Below are positions 6,169 to 21,582 of a stretch of 53,521 nucleotides of DNA, in pieces. The translations under genes and the position numbers were made by a program. Source of the DNA: an uncultured Clostridia bacterium (GTDB taxonomy: Bacteria; Bacillota; Clostridia; Christensenellales; UBA1242); contig CANQHL010000001.1 in the NCBI GenBank assembly GCA_947623775.1, forward strand, positions 1 through 53,521, in the 5' to 3' direction. Every line of letters begins with the position of its first letter. Positions within the stretch are counted from its first letter, which is position 1. The notes beneath the pieces are model-generated. The model searched no databases. It was not told where the DNA came from and was given only the letters and a program-made list of their open reading frames with translations.

Positions 6169-7041
6169 ATGAAAAAAGAAGAACTTGAAAAAATTCATAG
6201 CAAGAAAAAGATATTAAATTACTTTTTAAGACGTGATATAACAAGCACCGAAGAAATATTAAGTATTTTTCAAAAAATGCCAGGGGCGATAAGAGGGGAA
6301 AGTTCCAAGGGTTATCCTTATGTGTTTGTGCCGGGCAAGGCAAAAAACAAAGTTTTGTTGACCGCGCATTGTGACACGGTATGGGATGGCAAAGTAAATT
6401 GCAAACAAGATGTCAAGTATAAAAAAGGAGTGTTTTCTTCTGGAAACAAATCTGTCGGAATAGGTGCTGATGATAGGGCGGGGATTGCAATGCTTTATCT
6501 ATTAAAAAACAGCGGCAATTCACTTTTAATCACCACCGGCGAAGAAAGAAAAATGAGTTGTTCAAGATATTTGAGCGAAAGGGAATACGAACTTATAAAT
6601 GATCACAATTTTATAGTTCAACTTGATAAGTGTGGCAACAAGGAATTCAAGTGTTATTCTGTTGGAAGCGAGGAATTTATAGAATATATAAAGCAGCGTA
6701 CCGGCTTCAAATATATCAACCCATATTCATATACAGACATAGTTTCCTTATGCAAAACCATATGCGGTGTAAATTTGTCTGTAGGATATTACAATGAACA
6801 TTCGGCGGATGAATATTTGATTTATGATGAATGGAAAGAAACATTTAAAGCGGCAAAAAAGCTTATAAAAAATTCTCGAAAGTTTGAACTCGATAAAAAA
6901 AATATTGATGAACTTTATGAAGATGAGGACAAATTTGGATACAATGATTTCGACCTGCTAGATCTTATAGAACAGATGAATGAGGAAATAAAAAGAGAAA
7001 ACAAAGATGGATATTATGATATTCCTGAAATTGATTTATAA
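6169..7041 (+). CDS. M28/M20-like zinc peptidase with a roughly 50-aa acidic C-terminal extension
   Basis: LLTAHCDTVWDG, GIGADDRAGIAML and TTGEER match the metal-ligand motifs of co-catalytic zinc peptidases. The tail contains FDLLDLIE and ends YYDIPEIDL. Confidence 0.55.
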   Translation: MKKEELEKIHSKKKILNYFLRRDITSTEEILSIFQKMPGAIRGESSKGYPYVFVPGKAKNKVLLTAHCDTVWDGKVNCKQDVKYKKGVFSSGNKSVGIGADDRAGIAMLYLLKNSGNSLLITTGEERKMSCSRYLSEREYELINDHNFIVQLDKCGNKEFKCYSVGSEEFIEYIKQRTGFKYINPYSYTDIVSLCKTICGVNLSVGYYNEHSADEYLIYDEWKETFKAAKKLIKNSRKFELDKKNIDELYEDEDKFGYNDFDLLDLIEQMNEEIKRENKDGYYDIPEIDL

Positions 7042-15313: not shown

Positions 15314-15943
15314 TTATTCGATTTCTATAACATCGTCATCATAATTTTCTTCATCTGTACAAATTTCTTCATCATATAAACTGTCTGGATTGACTGTTGA
15401 ATTATTGATAGATGCTGTTTTGCTGATAAATCCGTTGCTATCAATAAGGCTTTTATCAAGAAGATTGCCAGCATAACCCCAGCCGTATGCAAATGAACCA
15501 TCACGAAGAAGAAACCATCCATCATATTGATAACGCCCGGTGACAGGGTCTTGAGAAATAGGTAAACCTTCATTGAATAGTTTGCAGACGTAAACAGTGT
15601 GTGCAGGGTTTCTACCACCTTGTAATTCTGCTTCACCTTCGAGGATAAATTGATATTCAGCTGAATTTTCGCCAAAAATATCGATAATTTGTTGTTTTGT
15701 AAGATAAGTGCCAATCATAAATGATTTACTGTTCGCACACGTTTCTGTTATTTTTGGCTCTTTTTTAAAAAGTCGTTTTTTTTCAATAACTTCATAATGT
15801 TCCAAAATAATGCCTATGGCGTTGTCTGGTATTTGTCCCAAATCATCAAATCCAAAACTTGGAATATCGCGTGTTAAAATTGTTCTATTGTTAATGTCTT
15901 TAAAAGTTGCAACTGTTTTGAAATAGACTCGCTTGGTTGCCAT
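15314..15943 (-). CDS. Tail-family protein, member G (first gene of the operon; degenerate tail VIEIE)
   Basis: 209 aa with RVYFKTVATF, FDDLGQIPDNAIGIIL and SFMIGTYLTKQQIIDIFGENSAEY blocks. The acidic C-terminus ends NYDDDVIEIE-stop. GGAGG RBS upstream. Confidence 0.8.
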   Translation of the reverse strand: MATKRVYFKTVATFKDINNRTILTRDIPSFGFDDLGQIPDNAIGIILEHYEVIEKKRLFKKEPKITETCANSKSFMIGTYLTKQQIIDIFGENSAEYQFILEGEAELQGGRNPAHTVYVCKLFNEGLPISQDPVTGRYQYDGWFLLRDGSFAYGWGYAGNLLDKSLIDSNGFISKTASINNSTVNPDSLYDEEICTDEENYDDDVIEIE

Positions 15944-18525: not shown

Positions 18526-19042
18526 TTTTGATAAAAATGCAAAAAATTATGAAAAACGCTGAAAAAAAACATCAAAATTATTAAATTATTGAAAAATTTG
18601 ATGTATTGCAAGAAAAATTTGCAGAAAAATTTTGATTTTTTTGAAGTAACGTGTACAAAAAAAGAACAGATTATTCTGCTCTTTTTTGTTTGTGTTTTAA
18701 ATATATATATCAAAAATTAGGTATTTAATAATTTTCAAAGTTGTTTAAAGATTTATAGTAAGATTATTTTTAACTTAATTAATATTAGTATAAAAAAGTT
18801 TAATTAACTTTAGTTTAGTTTAAATTTATATTTAAAAAAGAGAAGTACTAAAACTCATGTACATAATAACTATTTTTGCTTTAAATCTATCTGACGCAAA
18901 GAATAAAAATCATGGCATTACATTAAAAATAAGTTATGAATTTGGTTTAAGAAAATAATGATTAAAGGCAGATTTATGGGCATCTTGCCAATAATTATAC
19001 ACATCATCTTACATATCATCTTAATCCTTTATATAAAATAAA

Positions 19043-19060
19043 GAGTAGGAAAACCTACTC
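19043..19060 (-). terminator. Intrinsic terminator overlapping the stop codon of gene 19055..19795
   Basis: The minus strand reads GAGTAGG-TTTT-CCTACTC followed by TTTATTTTAT. The stem includes the final Glu and stop codons. Confidence 0.55.
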
Positions 19061-19795
19061 TAAGTCAAGAAATAATCCATTGTTGTAGTTATCATGTTCT
19101 GTTACGCTTTGTGGGTTAGGTGAGTGTACATTCTTTTGTTCATTTTCGACTCTTTTTAAAAGAGGGGCGAGATATTTAAATCCACTTAAAGCCACAACCG
19201 CTTCGGTCAAGTCTGTAAAATGTCGAAAATATTCTTCTACGCAAGGTTCGTGTGGATTTTCGCTAACTACTCTATTAACAAATGAACTTAAATTTAAATT
19301 ATGCAAAATTATATCATAAACATTGCCGTAATTTGAAATCATATCTTGTATTTTTGATTCACCATATTTGTCAAATGCGTTTTTTAACTTAGTTAAATTA
19401 TATTTTGCTATGGGGTATTTATATTTTTCTTCATCAGTAATAAAAAATATTTCCTTATAAGCCGTTGCAATTGACATTTTCATTTCATATTCGTTGGTAA
19501 ATTTTTCAAGATTGGTAATCTTGGTTTTAAAATATGATGATGGCAAATGGCAATGCCGTAAATCTTGAATTAAAACACATATATTTGGTAATTTTTCATT
19601 TTGGTCATCTGAATTATCATGAAAATCACCTGTTAATATATAAGGTGGTGCATCATTAGCTAAACTTTTTGCGATTTCAAGATACTGCTTCCATTTTTCA
19701 TAAATGTATGCGTTTTGAATTGTTATTTCGGGGCAGGGTTGAGTTGATAGAAATTCAGCCAACTTCTCTGCAGCATAAGCATCAGAAAATGTCAT
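19055..19795 (-). CDS. Hypothetical helical protein carrying the family C-terminal tail (FLDLE) on an unrelated body (member H)
   Basis: 246 aa with an AGGAGA RBS. The N-terminal and central sequence shows none of the A-G family blocks. A polar linker (ENEQKNVHSPNPQSVTEHDNYNNG) is followed by LFLDLE-stop. Confidence 0.75.
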   Translation of the reverse strand: MTFSDAYAAEKLAEFLSTQPCPEITIQNAYIYEKWKQYLEIAKSLANDAPPYILTGDFHDNSDDQNEKLPNICVLIQDLRHCHLPSSYFKTKITNLEKFTNEYEMKMSIATAYKEIFFITDEEKYKYPIAKYNLTKLKNAFDKYGESKIQDMISNYGNVYDIILHNLNLSSFVNRVVSENPHEPCVEEYFRHFTDLTEAVVALSGFKYLAPLLKRVENEQKNVHSPNPQSVTEHDNYNNGLFLDLE

Positions 19796-19845
19796 AAACT
19801 TTCTCCTGCAAAAAGTATAGCACCGTTGATATAAAAAGTCAACTG

Positions 19846-20718
19846 CTAGTTTAGATTGTCTTGTATTTCACTTATTTTATCATTTTCAATGGAAAAATTG
19901 TAAATTATATTTTTATTATTGGAAATTGCGAAGCAGGAACATGGGTCAATCATATAAAAATAACTTACATCACCAAAAAATCCTTTTAATGTTTTTTCAT
20001 TTAGAGAACTTTTGAGATTGGATGAAAGATAATCCATTGCACCCGAGAAATCACCGCATTTGACTGCACTCATAAATTTATAAGGCAAAAGTTCATTTGG
20101 AGACATTTCTTCATTGCGTGAAAAATCTTGTTCTCGCAATTTAAGTCCATCTTTGTCAATAAAATATTTGCGGGTAATATTTTTATAATCTTCATTTTCT
20201 TCAAAAAGAGAGAACCCATTTTTATCAATTACAATGTCGCGCGCTGAAAACATTTTTGCAGAATTTGTCTTAATATTATAACAAATGATGTTTTTTTTAT
20301 CATTTTTATCAAATTTTACATAGTTTATGTGGTAAAAATGTCCAACAGTGATATTTGAAACGGGGTGAAACAGGTTGATGATTTTTTTATGATTTACTCC
20401 ATAAAATGTGATTTCTTTTTGTCCAATTTCAATTTTTGATGTGATGCCGTAGCTTTTAAAATCATGCACTACAACGTTTTCTGCAGAAAAGCCATCTAAT
20501 AAAAATACAAGACGTTTGCCGTCTTTTTCGATTATTCTATAATATGGAGCGGGTGTAGAGAAGTTGATTTCAAATGAAAATCTATCACGTTTTTCGGGGT
20601 AGATATATATTGGGTCTAGTATATCATCTAGAATAACATGTTCATTTATTGAAATATGTTCGTTTATGTCTCTATATTTAACCACGCATGGATATGAAGT
20701 GTAAATAATAGTTTTCAT
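19846..20718 (-). CDS. Hypothetical 290-aa protein, apparently co-transcribed with member H
   Basis: ORF 50 nt upstream of member H on the same strand. No recognisable motif, signal peptide or TM segment. Ends EIQDNLN, so it lacks the tail. Confidence 0.6.
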   Translation of the reverse strand: MKTIIYTSYPCVVKYRDINEHISINEHVILDDILDPIYIYPEKRDRFSFEINFSTPAPYYRIIEKDGKRLVFLLDGFSAENVVVHDFKSYGITSKIEIGQKEITFYGVNHKKIINLFHPVSNITVGHFYHINYVKFDKNDKKNIICYNIKTNSAKMFSARDIVIDKNGFSLFEENEDYKNITRKYFIDKDGLKLREQDFSRNEEMSPNELLPYKFMSAVKCGDFSGAMDYLSSNLKSSLNEKTLKGFFGDVSYFYMIDPCSCFAISNNKNIIYNFSIENDKISEIQDNLN

Positions 20719-20862
20719 AATATAAAAATATGAGAGAATAAAGAGATTAATTACAAAATTTTGTCAAAAAATGATTATAAATACATAAAATAAACCAATT
20801 TGATGTAAGTTTATGTATAAATTCCTTTATTTGGTCTATAATTTGCGCAAGGAGTGAAAATT

Positions 20863-21582
20863 ATGAAAGGAATTTGGAAAAACAGCGAAGTAAAAGAATT
20901 ATTTTCCGTGGTCGAGGATTATAAGGGAAGCAATCGTTCATTGAAAGATGCGTTTATCTCTCATGCACAAAAATATGGACGAAAACCAAACAGTGTGAGA
21001 AATTATTATTATCACGAAGTGGATAATTTGAAAAATGACGGAAAAAGATTGGAAAAACTTGGAATAGATTTATCTCTTCACAATAAGGCGGCAATATCTT
21101 ACTTTTCGCAGGAGGAGGAAGAAAAACTGATGAAAGAAGTGGATGAAATGGTGAAAAAGGGAGTTTCTGTGAGAAAAGCATGCCTAAGTTTATCAGGTGG
21201 AGATGTAAGTCAAATGTTGAGGTATCAAAATAAATACAGAAATTATATTTTAAAAAACAAGCCGCAACCTCCAAAAGACAATGTTATAACTTTTAAAAAG
21301 GCACAGCGAACATTGACAGATGGCGAGGTTCAATCTTTGTTTATGGGGCTTGTGAGACTTGTGAAGAAAAACGCCCTTGAAGAAAGTGAGAGTTTATATA
21401 AAGAAAAGTTAAGCAAGGCAAATGATGAATTGCGAAAACTGCTTTTAAAACTTTCTTTGCGGGAACGAGATGTTGAGAAATTAAAAGCGGAAATGGACAA
21501 ATTGAAAAACGACAACATGTTGTTGGAAAGCAAAATGTTTCAAATGCGGTGCAAAAAAGCCGAAGAGTTGAATAAAGAATAA
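20863..21582 (+). CDS. Putative DNA-binding protein with two Myb/SANT-like (RsfA-like) repeats and a C-terminal coiled coil
   Basis: AAGGAG RBS before ATG 20863. WKNSEVKELFSVVEDY...SVRNYYYHEV and a second degenerate repeat resemble RsfA/Myb-type helix-turn-helix repeats. The C-terminus is heptad-rich (LRERDVEKLKAEMDKLKNDN). Confidence 0.4.
   Translation: MKGIWKNSEVKELFSVVEDYKGSNRSLKDAFISHAQKYGRKPNSVRNYYYHEVDNLKNDGKRLEKLGIDLSLHNKAAISYFSQEEEEKLMKEVDEMVKKGVSVRKACLSLSGGDVSQMLRYQNKYRNYILKNKPQPPKDNVITFKKAQRTLTDGEVQSLFMGLVRLVKKNALEESESLYKEKLSKANDELRKLLLKLSLRERDVEKLKAEMDKLKNDNMLLESKMFQMRCKKAEELNKE

Follow-up and report, generated by a model that had tools for sequence, protein, structure and literature searches.

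A C-terminal tail, probably a portable tag, on a helical protein of an uncultured gut Clostridia bacterium and the core gene that lies beside it

Introduction

It is rare in bacteria for a short C-terminal peptide to direct many unrelated proteins to one machine; the known examples, type VII secretion system (T7SS) signals, ssrA and EEVD/TPR among them, are usually ancient. The EEVD-COOH terminus of Hsp70 and Hsp90 is read by the TPR clamps of Hop and CHIP. In type VII secretion, a C-terminal YxxxD/E signal is read by EccC, and Lap1 carries an FxxxD form (PMC9600955). Here we describe a C-terminal tail in an uncultured Clostridia bacterium of the rabbit gut (assembly G000, 1.31 Mb), beginning from one stretch of its DNA, 53,521 nt long and referred to below as the window. 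A sequence-only reading of the window had proposed that the tail, found at the end of a 246-aa protein (p246), is a modular tag, and that the 290-aa ORF immediately upstream (p290) encodes a candidate cognate factor. A literature search for the tail motif string returned nothing relevant.

Results

The p246 gene and its control elements

The p246 ORF (19055..19795, minus strand) ends in ...HDNYNNGLFLDLE*, that is, in a polar linker followed by NNGLFLDLE-stop. Its terminator hairpin, AGAGTAGG-TTTT-CCTACTCT followed by TTATTTTATA (19061->19042, minus strand), contains both the GAG codon of Glu246 and the TAG stop codon, so that the linker, the ending and the overlapping terminator described in the sequence-only reading were all confirmed. 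The overlap of terminator and coding end is incidental, because the p246 orthologue in a second genome of the genus (G260) has another hairpin as its terminator, placed 3' of the stop codon. p290 lies on the same strand, exactly 50 nt upstream, and has no terminator after it. Within this gap we found a near-consensus extended -10 promoter that the sequence-only reading had missed and whose G260 counterpart (TTGACT-17-TGC-TATTAT) has been kept despite diverged flanks; its position suggests that p246 is likely transcribed from this predicted promoter of its own. No features were found in the 530-bp spacer 3' of p246, and nothing in the region matched Rfam. The coordinates of all features are collected in Table 1.

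Table 1. Features of the p246 locus, in window coordinates
Feature	Position	Strand	Basis
p246 residues 1-223, orphan all-helical globular domain	19127..19795	-	AF2 model; no fold or family match
p246 residues 224-238, polar disordered linker of variable length	19082..19126	-	pLDDT about 30-46
p246 residues 239-246, NGLFLDLE, common C-terminal tail	19058..19081	-	Sequence
p246 intrinsic terminator (8-bp stem, 4-nt loop, T-run)	19032..19061	-	Stem covers the Glu246 and stop codons
p246 predicted promoter, sigma-70-type, TTGACT-17-(TGc)TATACT, within the 50-nt gap	19814..19842	-	10/12 matches; TG extended -10
p246 ribosome-binding site, AGGAG	19803..19807	-	Sequence; conserved in G260
p290, untagged core gene of the genus	19846..20718	-	AF2 pLDDT 87; 145/154 genomes; position kept without tailed neighbour
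p242, Myb-like N-terminus plus coiled coil, divergent, constant neighbour of p290	20854..21582	+	54-84% identity across all loci of relatives

The p246 protein and its homologues

The AF2 model of p246 (m14ef6a792908; pLDDT 78, pTM 0.74) contains 11 helices, and the 22 residues of linker and tail (225-246) have pLDDT values below 50 and are predicted to be disordered. Searches of the PDB and BFVD with this fold gave no match (best E 0.14-0.2, TM <= 0.23). Neither p246 nor p290 scored above noise against Pfam or NCBIfam or matched the PADLOC defence models in any meaningful way, and neither contains a hydrophobic segment (maximum Kyte-Doolittle 19-mer 1.05).

Among 1.84 billion (1.84e9) representative sequences, p246 had only two homologues, P0015 (36% identical) and P0016 (about 22-24% identical). 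Both end in the tail, P0015 as NGLYINLE and P0016 in the variant form NGIYEELN with a final N rather than E, whereas the linker in the three-way alignment (A3) shows indels and no conservation. Since the p246 family has three members only, conservation of the tail within it rests on few sequences. P0016 lies on a contig of 949 bp, and a metagenome scan with A3 found nothing further. Within the genus a p246 profile (A2) matched only G000 and G260, and it had no match in 150 genomes of the order. A weak A2 match in a third genome (G255:C75) was rejected as spurious, being located in the sigF/spoIIAB region. p246 is a singleton in G000, without a paralogue.

The tail across the G000 genome

The commonest C-terminal tripeptide in G000 is DLE, which ends 22 ORFs (the next, ILL, ends 12). 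ORFs ending in [YF]x[DEN](hydrophobic)[ED] numbered 28, against 1-3 when the pattern was shifted 5 or 7 residues upstream, and at the DNA level the tail pattern had 21-22 matches against 0-1 for a reversed-pattern control. The 28 tailed ORFs fall into 14 families without sequence relation and are spread across at least 12 contigs; p246 stripped of its tail has no likeness to the other tail-bearing families, in agreement with the sequence-only reading, which had set it apart from them. Coding of the tails is varied: 27 of them are encoded by 26 distinct 18-mers, their Leu and Ile codons include TTG, TTA, CTT, CTA, CTC, ATT and ATC, and p246 itself has Phe (TTT) where the consensus has Tyr (TAT). 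The DNA downstream of the tail genes is unrelated from gene to gene, with no conserved nucleotide block past the stop codon. A second tail gene, upstream of ftsK, repeats the pattern of p246, with a core that is 70% identical, a hypervariable linker and a conserved end; three relatives without tails (G164, G094 and G281) were examined and had no counterpart of it upstream of ftsK.

Because the tail sits on a disordered linker, is kept while the protein bodies diverge, occurs on 14 unrelated families and is written in varied codons, these observations support reading it as a short linear motif that is portable, a modular tag and not an element of one fold, as the sequence-only reading had proposed from p246.

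Phyletic spread of the tail

Tails occur in bulk in only three of the 154 species genomes of the genus (G000, G255 and G260). We refer to the proteins concerned as the [YF]-x-[DN]-L-E-COOH tail-tag set of this clade, a class defined in this analysis and not taken from the literature; p246 belongs to it by its C-terminal motif, its disordered linker, its conserved tail and its confinement to the clade. Recurrent matches to YLDFE-stop in tail-less genomes were considered as possible ancestral tailed orthologues and rejected, since they are antisense to conserved coding sequence (...YSKSRYY...) or lie in short frames. In the sister genome G181, variant tails of the form FxD[FL]D coincide with real ORF ends at only 2 of 10 sites and therefore cannot discriminate between the candidate readers discussed below.

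The p290 gene and its locus

The 290-aa ORF lacks a family match, a hydrophobic segment and the tail (it ends ...EIQDNLN), in agreement with its first description as an ORF with no recognisable motif, signal peptide or tail. Its model is beta-rich: about 20 strands occupy residues 1-201, and residues 208-287 form a C-terminal alpha/beta domain. Foldseek searches of the PDB returned only beta-propellers at TM 0.19-0.28, among them clathrin terminal domains whose structures were determined with LLDL/LIDL peptides; these matches were too weak to assign p290 as a peptide-binding propeller.

The p290 family is present in 145 of the 154 genus genomes (97 of the 103 high-quality ones) and is weakly detectable in some 10 further families within the order, whereas p246 is present in two of the 154, plus remnants, so that the two genes do not co-occur as a pair across the genus. 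The p290-p246 arrangement was found in one other species genome, G260, a synteny we attribute to the insertion of p246 next to a core gene. In the corresponding loci of six relatives (L003, L004 and L006-L009), p290 is followed directly by a convergent MBL-fold gene with no tailed gene between, and in two of these (L006 and L009, from the tail-bearing clade) decayed remnants of the tailed gene accompany an intact p290. In loci that lack the tailed gene or retain a decayed copy of it (L006, L009), p290 keeps its position beside addBA and divergent from a Myb-like gene. It is this divergent gene, p242, that is the constant neighbour of p290, not the tailed gene; its 242-aa product has a weak Pfam match to Myb_DNA-binding (E 0.008) and no NCBIfam or PDB assignment. 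PDB profile searches with two alignments (A1 and A5) gave nothing. Identity between G000 and G260 is 84% for p242, 62% for p290 and 36% for p246.

Candidate readers of the tail

An EssC/EccC-like ATPase encoded on contig C31 of G000 (C31:3699-6569) is full-length in G000 and G260 (83% identical), diverged in G255 (29% identity) and absent from the 151 other genus genomes. Among named proteins, its best relatives are EssC, EccC and YukB. Four helical ORFs of WXG100 size come after it, as do two Zn-ribbon TPR/Sel1 proteins (C31:8140-10518). Unlike EssC/EccC proper, which sits in the membrane by TM helices and has 2-3 FtsK-like ATPase domains, the protein is soluble, with no TM helix, no FHA domain and one Walker A only; its TIGR03928 score is 92.9 bits, the cut-off being 778. 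EssB/YukC (PF10140), YukD/EsaB (PF08817) and LXG (PF04740) were not found in G000, G255 or G260, whose assemblies are 72-90% complete, and WXG100 matches were sub-threshold (E 0.0045 in G255; TIGR03930 E 0.056). The ATPase copy in G255 comes from another subfamily, one that is widely mobile. Elsewhere, no tail was carried by any of the 1515 ORFs in 80 loci around relatives of the ATPase, and genomes with orthologous ATPase loci had tail counts at control level, with no enrichment. The co-distribution of ATPase and tail (3/3 against 0/151) is a single evolutionary event.

A second candidate is a MoxR-like AAA+ family. The N-domain of its 657-722-aa members (C2, C45 and C62) is homologous to at least five tail-bearing proteins, recurring in stand-alone form with the tail at its end on C18, C30, C60, C91 and C118, and a stand-alone AAA+ ATPase half lies at C31:10961-12004. 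Members of the family adjoin tail-gene arrays. Counting against this reader, the family is also abundant in the tail-poor sisters G181, G281, G284, G278 and G272. p246 itself has no homology to the N-domain.

Discussion

Our preferred reading, to which we assign a probability of about 0.65, is that p246 is an accessory tagged gene beside core genes, that its tail is a selected, portable peptide present in 3 of 154 genomes, and that p290 is not its partner. The gene would be a stand-alone, dispensable and fast-evolving one, with its own promoter, ribosome-binding site and terminator, whose insertion between p290 and the convergent MBL-fold gene took place in the common ancestor of one small sub-clade within the genus. 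The predicted product joins a soluble orphan helical domain to a disordered linker of ~15 residues and ends in N-G-L-[F/Y]-x-[D/N]-L-E-COOH. The terminal peptide may serve as a docking or targeting tag, held by peptide-level selection on about 28 proteins of 14 families, and we infer that the free acidic C-terminus, with the aromatic and Leu residues, would dock its carriers onto a clade-specific machine.

The proposal of a cognate two-gene unit, in which p290 would serve p246 or its tail as chaperone, receptor or toxin partner, drew on their adjacency on one strand across a short gap. It could be extended by the lack of a terminator between the two genes, which makes read-through possible, by the retention of the arrangement in G260 and by the repeated 4-strand beta-meander in the p290 model, for which beta-propellers are the top, if too weak, matches. 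The C-terminus of p246 is indeed conserved in its homologues and the pair is syntenic in G260, so neither of the outcomes that the sequence-only reading had named as fatal to its idea occurred; the partnership is nonetheless unsupported. A gene found in 145 of 154 genomes that persists where the tailed gene is missing or has twice decayed, that evolves at a strongly different rate and that is followed by a conserved promoter belonging to p246 is better described as a genus-wide core gene adjacent to p246 by chance and outside the tail system. On these distributions, as read from the genomes, the cognate reading appears largely refuted, and we regard it as very unlikely. Less probable still is that the common ending is a DNA-level by-product, such as a 3' cassette, a terminator-linked module or the result of recent recombination. 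The p246 terminator stem does overlap the last two codons, and gene conversion could act on the tandem arrays that hold many of the tail genes, but a copied DNA module does not fit tails spelled by nearly as many 18-mers as there are tails, unrelated downstream sequences, a G260 orthologue that keeps the tail with another terminator, or the scatter of the tail over unrelated families and contigs; we give this explanation hardly any weight.

A further alternative is that the tail is a C-terminal degron, which would hand its carriers for turnover to a housekeeping protease of the AAA+ class, such as ClpXP, ClpCP or Lon, or to an adaptor. This would suit the disordered, exposed C-terminus of the p246 model and the MoxR-like AAA+ members beside tail-gene arrays, and degron peptides at the C-terminus are familiar from Firmicutes. 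Housekeeping proteases are universal, however, while the tail is limited to three genomes; to our knowledge, the C-degrons of bacteria terminate in a hydrophobic or small residue and not in Asp-Leu-Glu; and the retention of a destruction signal by 14 clade-specific families would be hard to explain. We therefore hold a degron to be improbable. Of the clade's own candidates, the soluble EssC/EccC-like module on C31, reading [YF]xxx[ED] in T7SS fashion, is put forward tentatively, by analogy, and at odds well short of even. Equally tentative is the wider proposal that the tail is a recently evolved recruitment signal for this machine, with p246 one of ~28 clients or substrates; the machine would comprise the ATPase, the four WXG100-sized helical proteins and the Zn-ribbon TPR/Sel1 proteins as adaptors, possibly with MoxR-like AAA+ proteins. 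The MoxR-like family, whose N-domain is both fused to the ATPase and free with a tail, is a somewhat more doubtful reader, and the Zn-ribbon TPR/Sel1 proteins encoded at C31, by analogy as carboxylate clamps, a rather unlikely one. That the reader is something not yet seen has a substantial chance, though below even.

The tag has a sharp phyletic onset (3 of 154 species genomes) on 14 orphan families, and this makes it a natural system in which to study the origin and spread of a sorting or docking code. If the EssC-like reading is true, it would amount to a new pathway of protein sorting or export that arose within three species of a gut Clostridia genus with reduced genomes. The 290-aa neighbour is removed as a false lead, and, among the selected candidates compared across the genus, the search for a reader is narrowed to a few clade-specific ATPase and TPR genes.

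Among known systems, the MoxR-like proteins resemble Rosetta-stone AAA+ pairs in that the N-domain occurs both fused to the ATPase and stand-alone with the tail, with a separate ATPase half as well; they differ in that p246 is unrelated to the N-domain and the family is expanded in sisters with few or no tails. The EEVD-COOH system resembles the tail in its free C-terminal pentapeptide on a disordered linker, acidic at 0 and -2 and hydrophobic at -1 and -4 (I/M-E-E-V-D compared with Y-L-D-L-E), one motif being common to different proteins, and the C31 locus specific to the clade encodes Zn-ribbon TPR/Sel1 proteins. EEVD/TPR, however, is eukaryotic chaperone machinery, TPR/Sel1 repeats are generic, and a tail-TPR contact here is a possibility raised by the sequence pattern.

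The possible likeness to T7SS signals has to be set against several differences. The tail occupies the last five residues, with Asp at -2 and Leu at -1 fixed; the p246 motif lies 22 residues past the last helix, whereas in EspB, PE25 and Lap1 it lies at the helix end; the C31 ATPase has a single Walker A and no TM segments or FHA domain, EssB, YukD and LXG are absent and WXG100 is sub-threshold; and orthologous ATPase loci in other lineages lack the tail. The [Y/F]-x-x-x-[E/D] spacing is the same, with Y-L-D-L-E in the clade, F-L-D-L-E (FxxxE) in p246 and YINLE in its orthologue. As in T7SS substrates, the carrier proteins are small and soluble, lack Sec signals and bear the motif on a C-terminal stretch that is flexible; p246 is all-helical, and within the genus it is only the tail-bearing genomes that encode an EssC/EccC-like ATPase together with WXG100-sized helical ORFs.

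A tailed gene with probable independent expression

The 246-aa tailed ORF (p246), the 290-aa ORF 50 nt upstream of it (p290) and a terminator whose hairpin sequence contains the Glu246 and stop codons, all described in the sequence-only reading, were confirmed in the sequence. Neither protein matched Pfam, NCBIfam or PADLOC or contains a hydrophobic segment. When 5.8 billion proteins were searched from word seeds, p246 itself was the sole match, and it has no paralogue in the source genome, G000. At the corresponding position, locus L001 of a related MAG ("uncultured Clostridia bacterium Lapin-030 bin96", the same genome as G260) encodes a homologue of 229 aa (36% identical, E 5e-37) ending in NGLYINLE. 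Profile searching of 1.84 billion representatives brought in a single further member, P0016 (243 aa, E 6.6e-13), with the end NWNGIYEELN. Within the genus the family was found only in G000 and G260, and none of 150 other genomes of the order gave a match. The C-terminal conservation sought in homologues was present: the three-way alignment has indels in the linker yet retains D-N-[YFW]-(N)-N-G-[LI]-[YF]-x-x-L-[EN], and the tail Phe (TTT) of p246 differs from the consensus Tyr (TAT) by a single base. The AF2 model (pLDDT 78, pTM 0.74) comprises an all-helical domain (residues 1-223) and a disordered segment (225-246), for which the suggested structural search yielded no fold relative in PDB or BFVD.

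The gap between p290 and p246 holds TTGACT-17-TGc-TATACT and an AGGAG ribosome-binding site, and both promoter and binding site are kept in G260 despite diverged flanks, while the terminator of the G260 homologue is a different hairpin. We conclude that p246 is an accessory gene, probably expressed on its own, that was inserted next to a core gene. The spacer beyond its terminator, with no notable ORF and no Rfam match, measures only ~40 bp in G260.

Coordinates of features in the window and in the G000 assembly
Feature	Location	Strand	Remarks
p246 ORF	window 19055-19795	minus	246 aa, ends ...EHDNYNNGLFLDLE-stop
p246 terminator	window 19061->19042	minus	AGAGTAGG-TTTT-CCTACTCT + T-run
Spacer	window 18526-19041		~530 bp, AT-rich; separates p246 terminator from convergent MBL-fold gene
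p290 ORF	window 19846-20718	minus	290 aa
p242	window 20854-21582	+	window's copy of p290's divergent Myb-like/coiled-coil neighbour
Tail-like ORF	window 6169-7041	+	acidic, non-matching end ...DGYYDIPEIDL
Tail-like ORF	window 15314-15943	-	acidic, non-matching end ...YDDDVIEIE
Second tail gene (locus L034)	C54:7598-8140		directly upstream of ftsK/spoIIIE (housekeeping) in G000, G255 and G260
EssC/EccC-like ATPase	C31:3699-6569		956 aa
Compact locus L026	C31:3699-10518		soluble ATPase, 4-5 WXG100-sized helical ORFs, Zn-ribbon TPR/Sel1 proteins
MoxR-like, fused N-domain + ATPase	C2:37251-39224, C45, C62
MoxR-like, stand-alone ATPase half	C31:10961-12004
MoxR-like, N-domain only	C18, C30, C60, C91, C118		at least 5 proteins, ending in tail

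A probable tag conserved as peptide

Within the window, [YF]xDLE forms the end of seven ORFs, and DLE is the commonest C-terminal tripeptide of the whole G000 assembly (1.31 Mb, 126 contigs, 33% GC, 78% complete). The tail motif was carried by 28 G000 ORFs versus 1-3 in positional controls, and a degenerate DNA pattern gave 21-22 matches versus 0-1 in the reversed control. Among the 154 species genomes of the genus, Y-(hydrophobic)-[DN]-(hydrophobic)-E-stop occurred in bulk only in G000 (22), G255 (20) and G260 (20), the remainder having 0-3 matches, which is the control level; a broader pattern left this distribution unchanged. Apparent variant tails in tail-poor sister genomes were mostly noise.

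With tails stripped, the G000 tail ORFs fell into 14 BLASTP families. At the codon level, 27 tails comprised 26 different 18-mers followed by unrelated downstream DNA, which argues that conservation is at the peptide level. These two results and the retained ends of homologues support the earlier proposal of a modular tag. The second tail gene repeats the anatomy of p246: its core is 70% identical in G255 and G260, its linker is hypervariable and of low complexity, and its S-Y-[LI]-[DN]-L-E end is conserved. No counterpart occurs in the three tail-less relatives examined (G164, G094 and G281). In G000 the linker of this gene is expanded to NGNENSS repeats. A literature search found nothing on the tail.

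p290 is a core gene

The p290 family was found in 145 of the 154 genus genomes (97 of 103 of high quality), and its C-terminal domain had weak matches in ~10 other families of the order. Searches gave 12 relatives of p290 (40-65% identity). In every context recovered, p290 is divergent from a ~250-aa gene that combines a Myb-like N-terminus with a coiled coil. The p242-p290 pair was conserved at every relative's locus examined, p242 being 54-84% identical across these loci and usually adjoined by addBA. Between species in which p290 is 62% identical p242 reaches 84%. Both genes are unassigned; as a pair, they could represent a regulator together with its target.

Among the loci examined, the proposed pairing of p290 with a downstream tailed gene recurred only in G260 (L001/L002); at L003, L004 and L006-L009, the convergent MBL-fold gene comes straight after p290, with no intact tailed gene. 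L009 retains a decayed stub that corresponds to residues 1-43 of p246, and L006 (G255 type) retains ...FVNIDLE-stop behind stop codons. From these remnants we conclude that the ancestor of the sub-clade had the tailed gene and that two losses followed, with p290 kept in both cases. The suggestion that p290 is the cognate partner of p246 was not supported, given its breadth, its persistence where the tailed gene was lost and the separate putative promoter of p246; p290 is a core gene and not a tail-specific factor.

In the AF2 model of p290 (m7ce99db768f4, pLDDT 87), ~20 beta strands make up five 4-strand meanders and are accompanied by an alpha/beta C-domain; beta-propellers were the only Foldseek matches (TM 0.19-0.28). 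Among the top matches are terminal domains of the clathrin heavy chain, in crystal structures with the "clathrin-box" peptides LLDL, LIDL and LIDM. These peptides resemble the -LDLE of the tail; the terminal domains matched at TM 0.19-0.25 only, and the modelled likeness is probably coincidental.

Candidate readers of the tail

Two ATPase families are leads for a reader, a hypothetical factor recognising the tail. The MoxR-like AAA+ family (AAA_3/AAA_5) occurs in G000 in three forms, fused, stand-alone and N-domain-only, and its fused and split members form what reads as a Rosetta-stone pattern, making it a candidate reader on sequence grounds. Against this candidate, the family is expanded in tail-poor sister genomes too (multi-copy in G181, G281, G284 and G278). 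Contig C17 also carries a member; the N-domain spans ~330 aa.

The other candidate, also proposed from sequence, is an extra FtsK-family ATPase present in all three tail-bearing genomes. The best named relatives of the G000 protein are T7SS EssC, EccCa and EccCb (E 1e-26 to 8e-20, with scores far below the equivalog cut-offs) versus FtsK at 7e-7, and its best PDB relatives are EccC5, T. curvata EccC and YukB. Long matches within the genus were limited to G000, G260 (83% identical over the full length) and G255 (121 bits, with 29% identity across residues 151-740); among the other 151 genomes, 144 matched in the FtsK core alone and 7 not at all. Against this candidate, the G255 copy is part of a different, widely spread element, and genomes with orthologous ATPase loci (47%, 40% and 30% identity) showed no tail enrichment.

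That FtsK/EssC-like element (L028 on G255:C27; L046-L119 in Lachnospiraceae, Faecalibacterium, Oscillospiraceae and others) carries near-identical small families across many gut Clostridia: one of ~182 aa starting YWYQSDPQLY and ending ...EGNY, one of 89 aa ending ...YN[RK]VKF and one of ~280 aa ending ...IIRxFAA. The G255 copy adjoins an integrase, and the element is probably mobile.

Downstream of the ATPase, G000 has four helical ORFs (91-130 aa, one of them giving a weak WXG100 hint) and then a pair of Zn-ribbon TPR/Sel1 proteins. This locus, L026, lies outside the window and has L027 (G260), L041 and L042 as counterparts; the same arrangement occurs, at 40-47% identity, in MAGs of distant Bacillota and Bacilli. 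Also speaking against the ATPase as reader, no EssB, YukD or LXG protein was found in the tail-bearing genomes, nor any WXG100 protein above cut-off, and the ATPase itself lacks a TM helix and has only one Walker A. Such loci could in themselves constitute a T7SS-like or intracellular system that has yet to be described. The [YF]xxx[ED] of the tail resembles the T7SS export signals described in PMC9600955. The tail is probably a hitherto undescribed form of a known kind, the short C-terminal docking or export motif.
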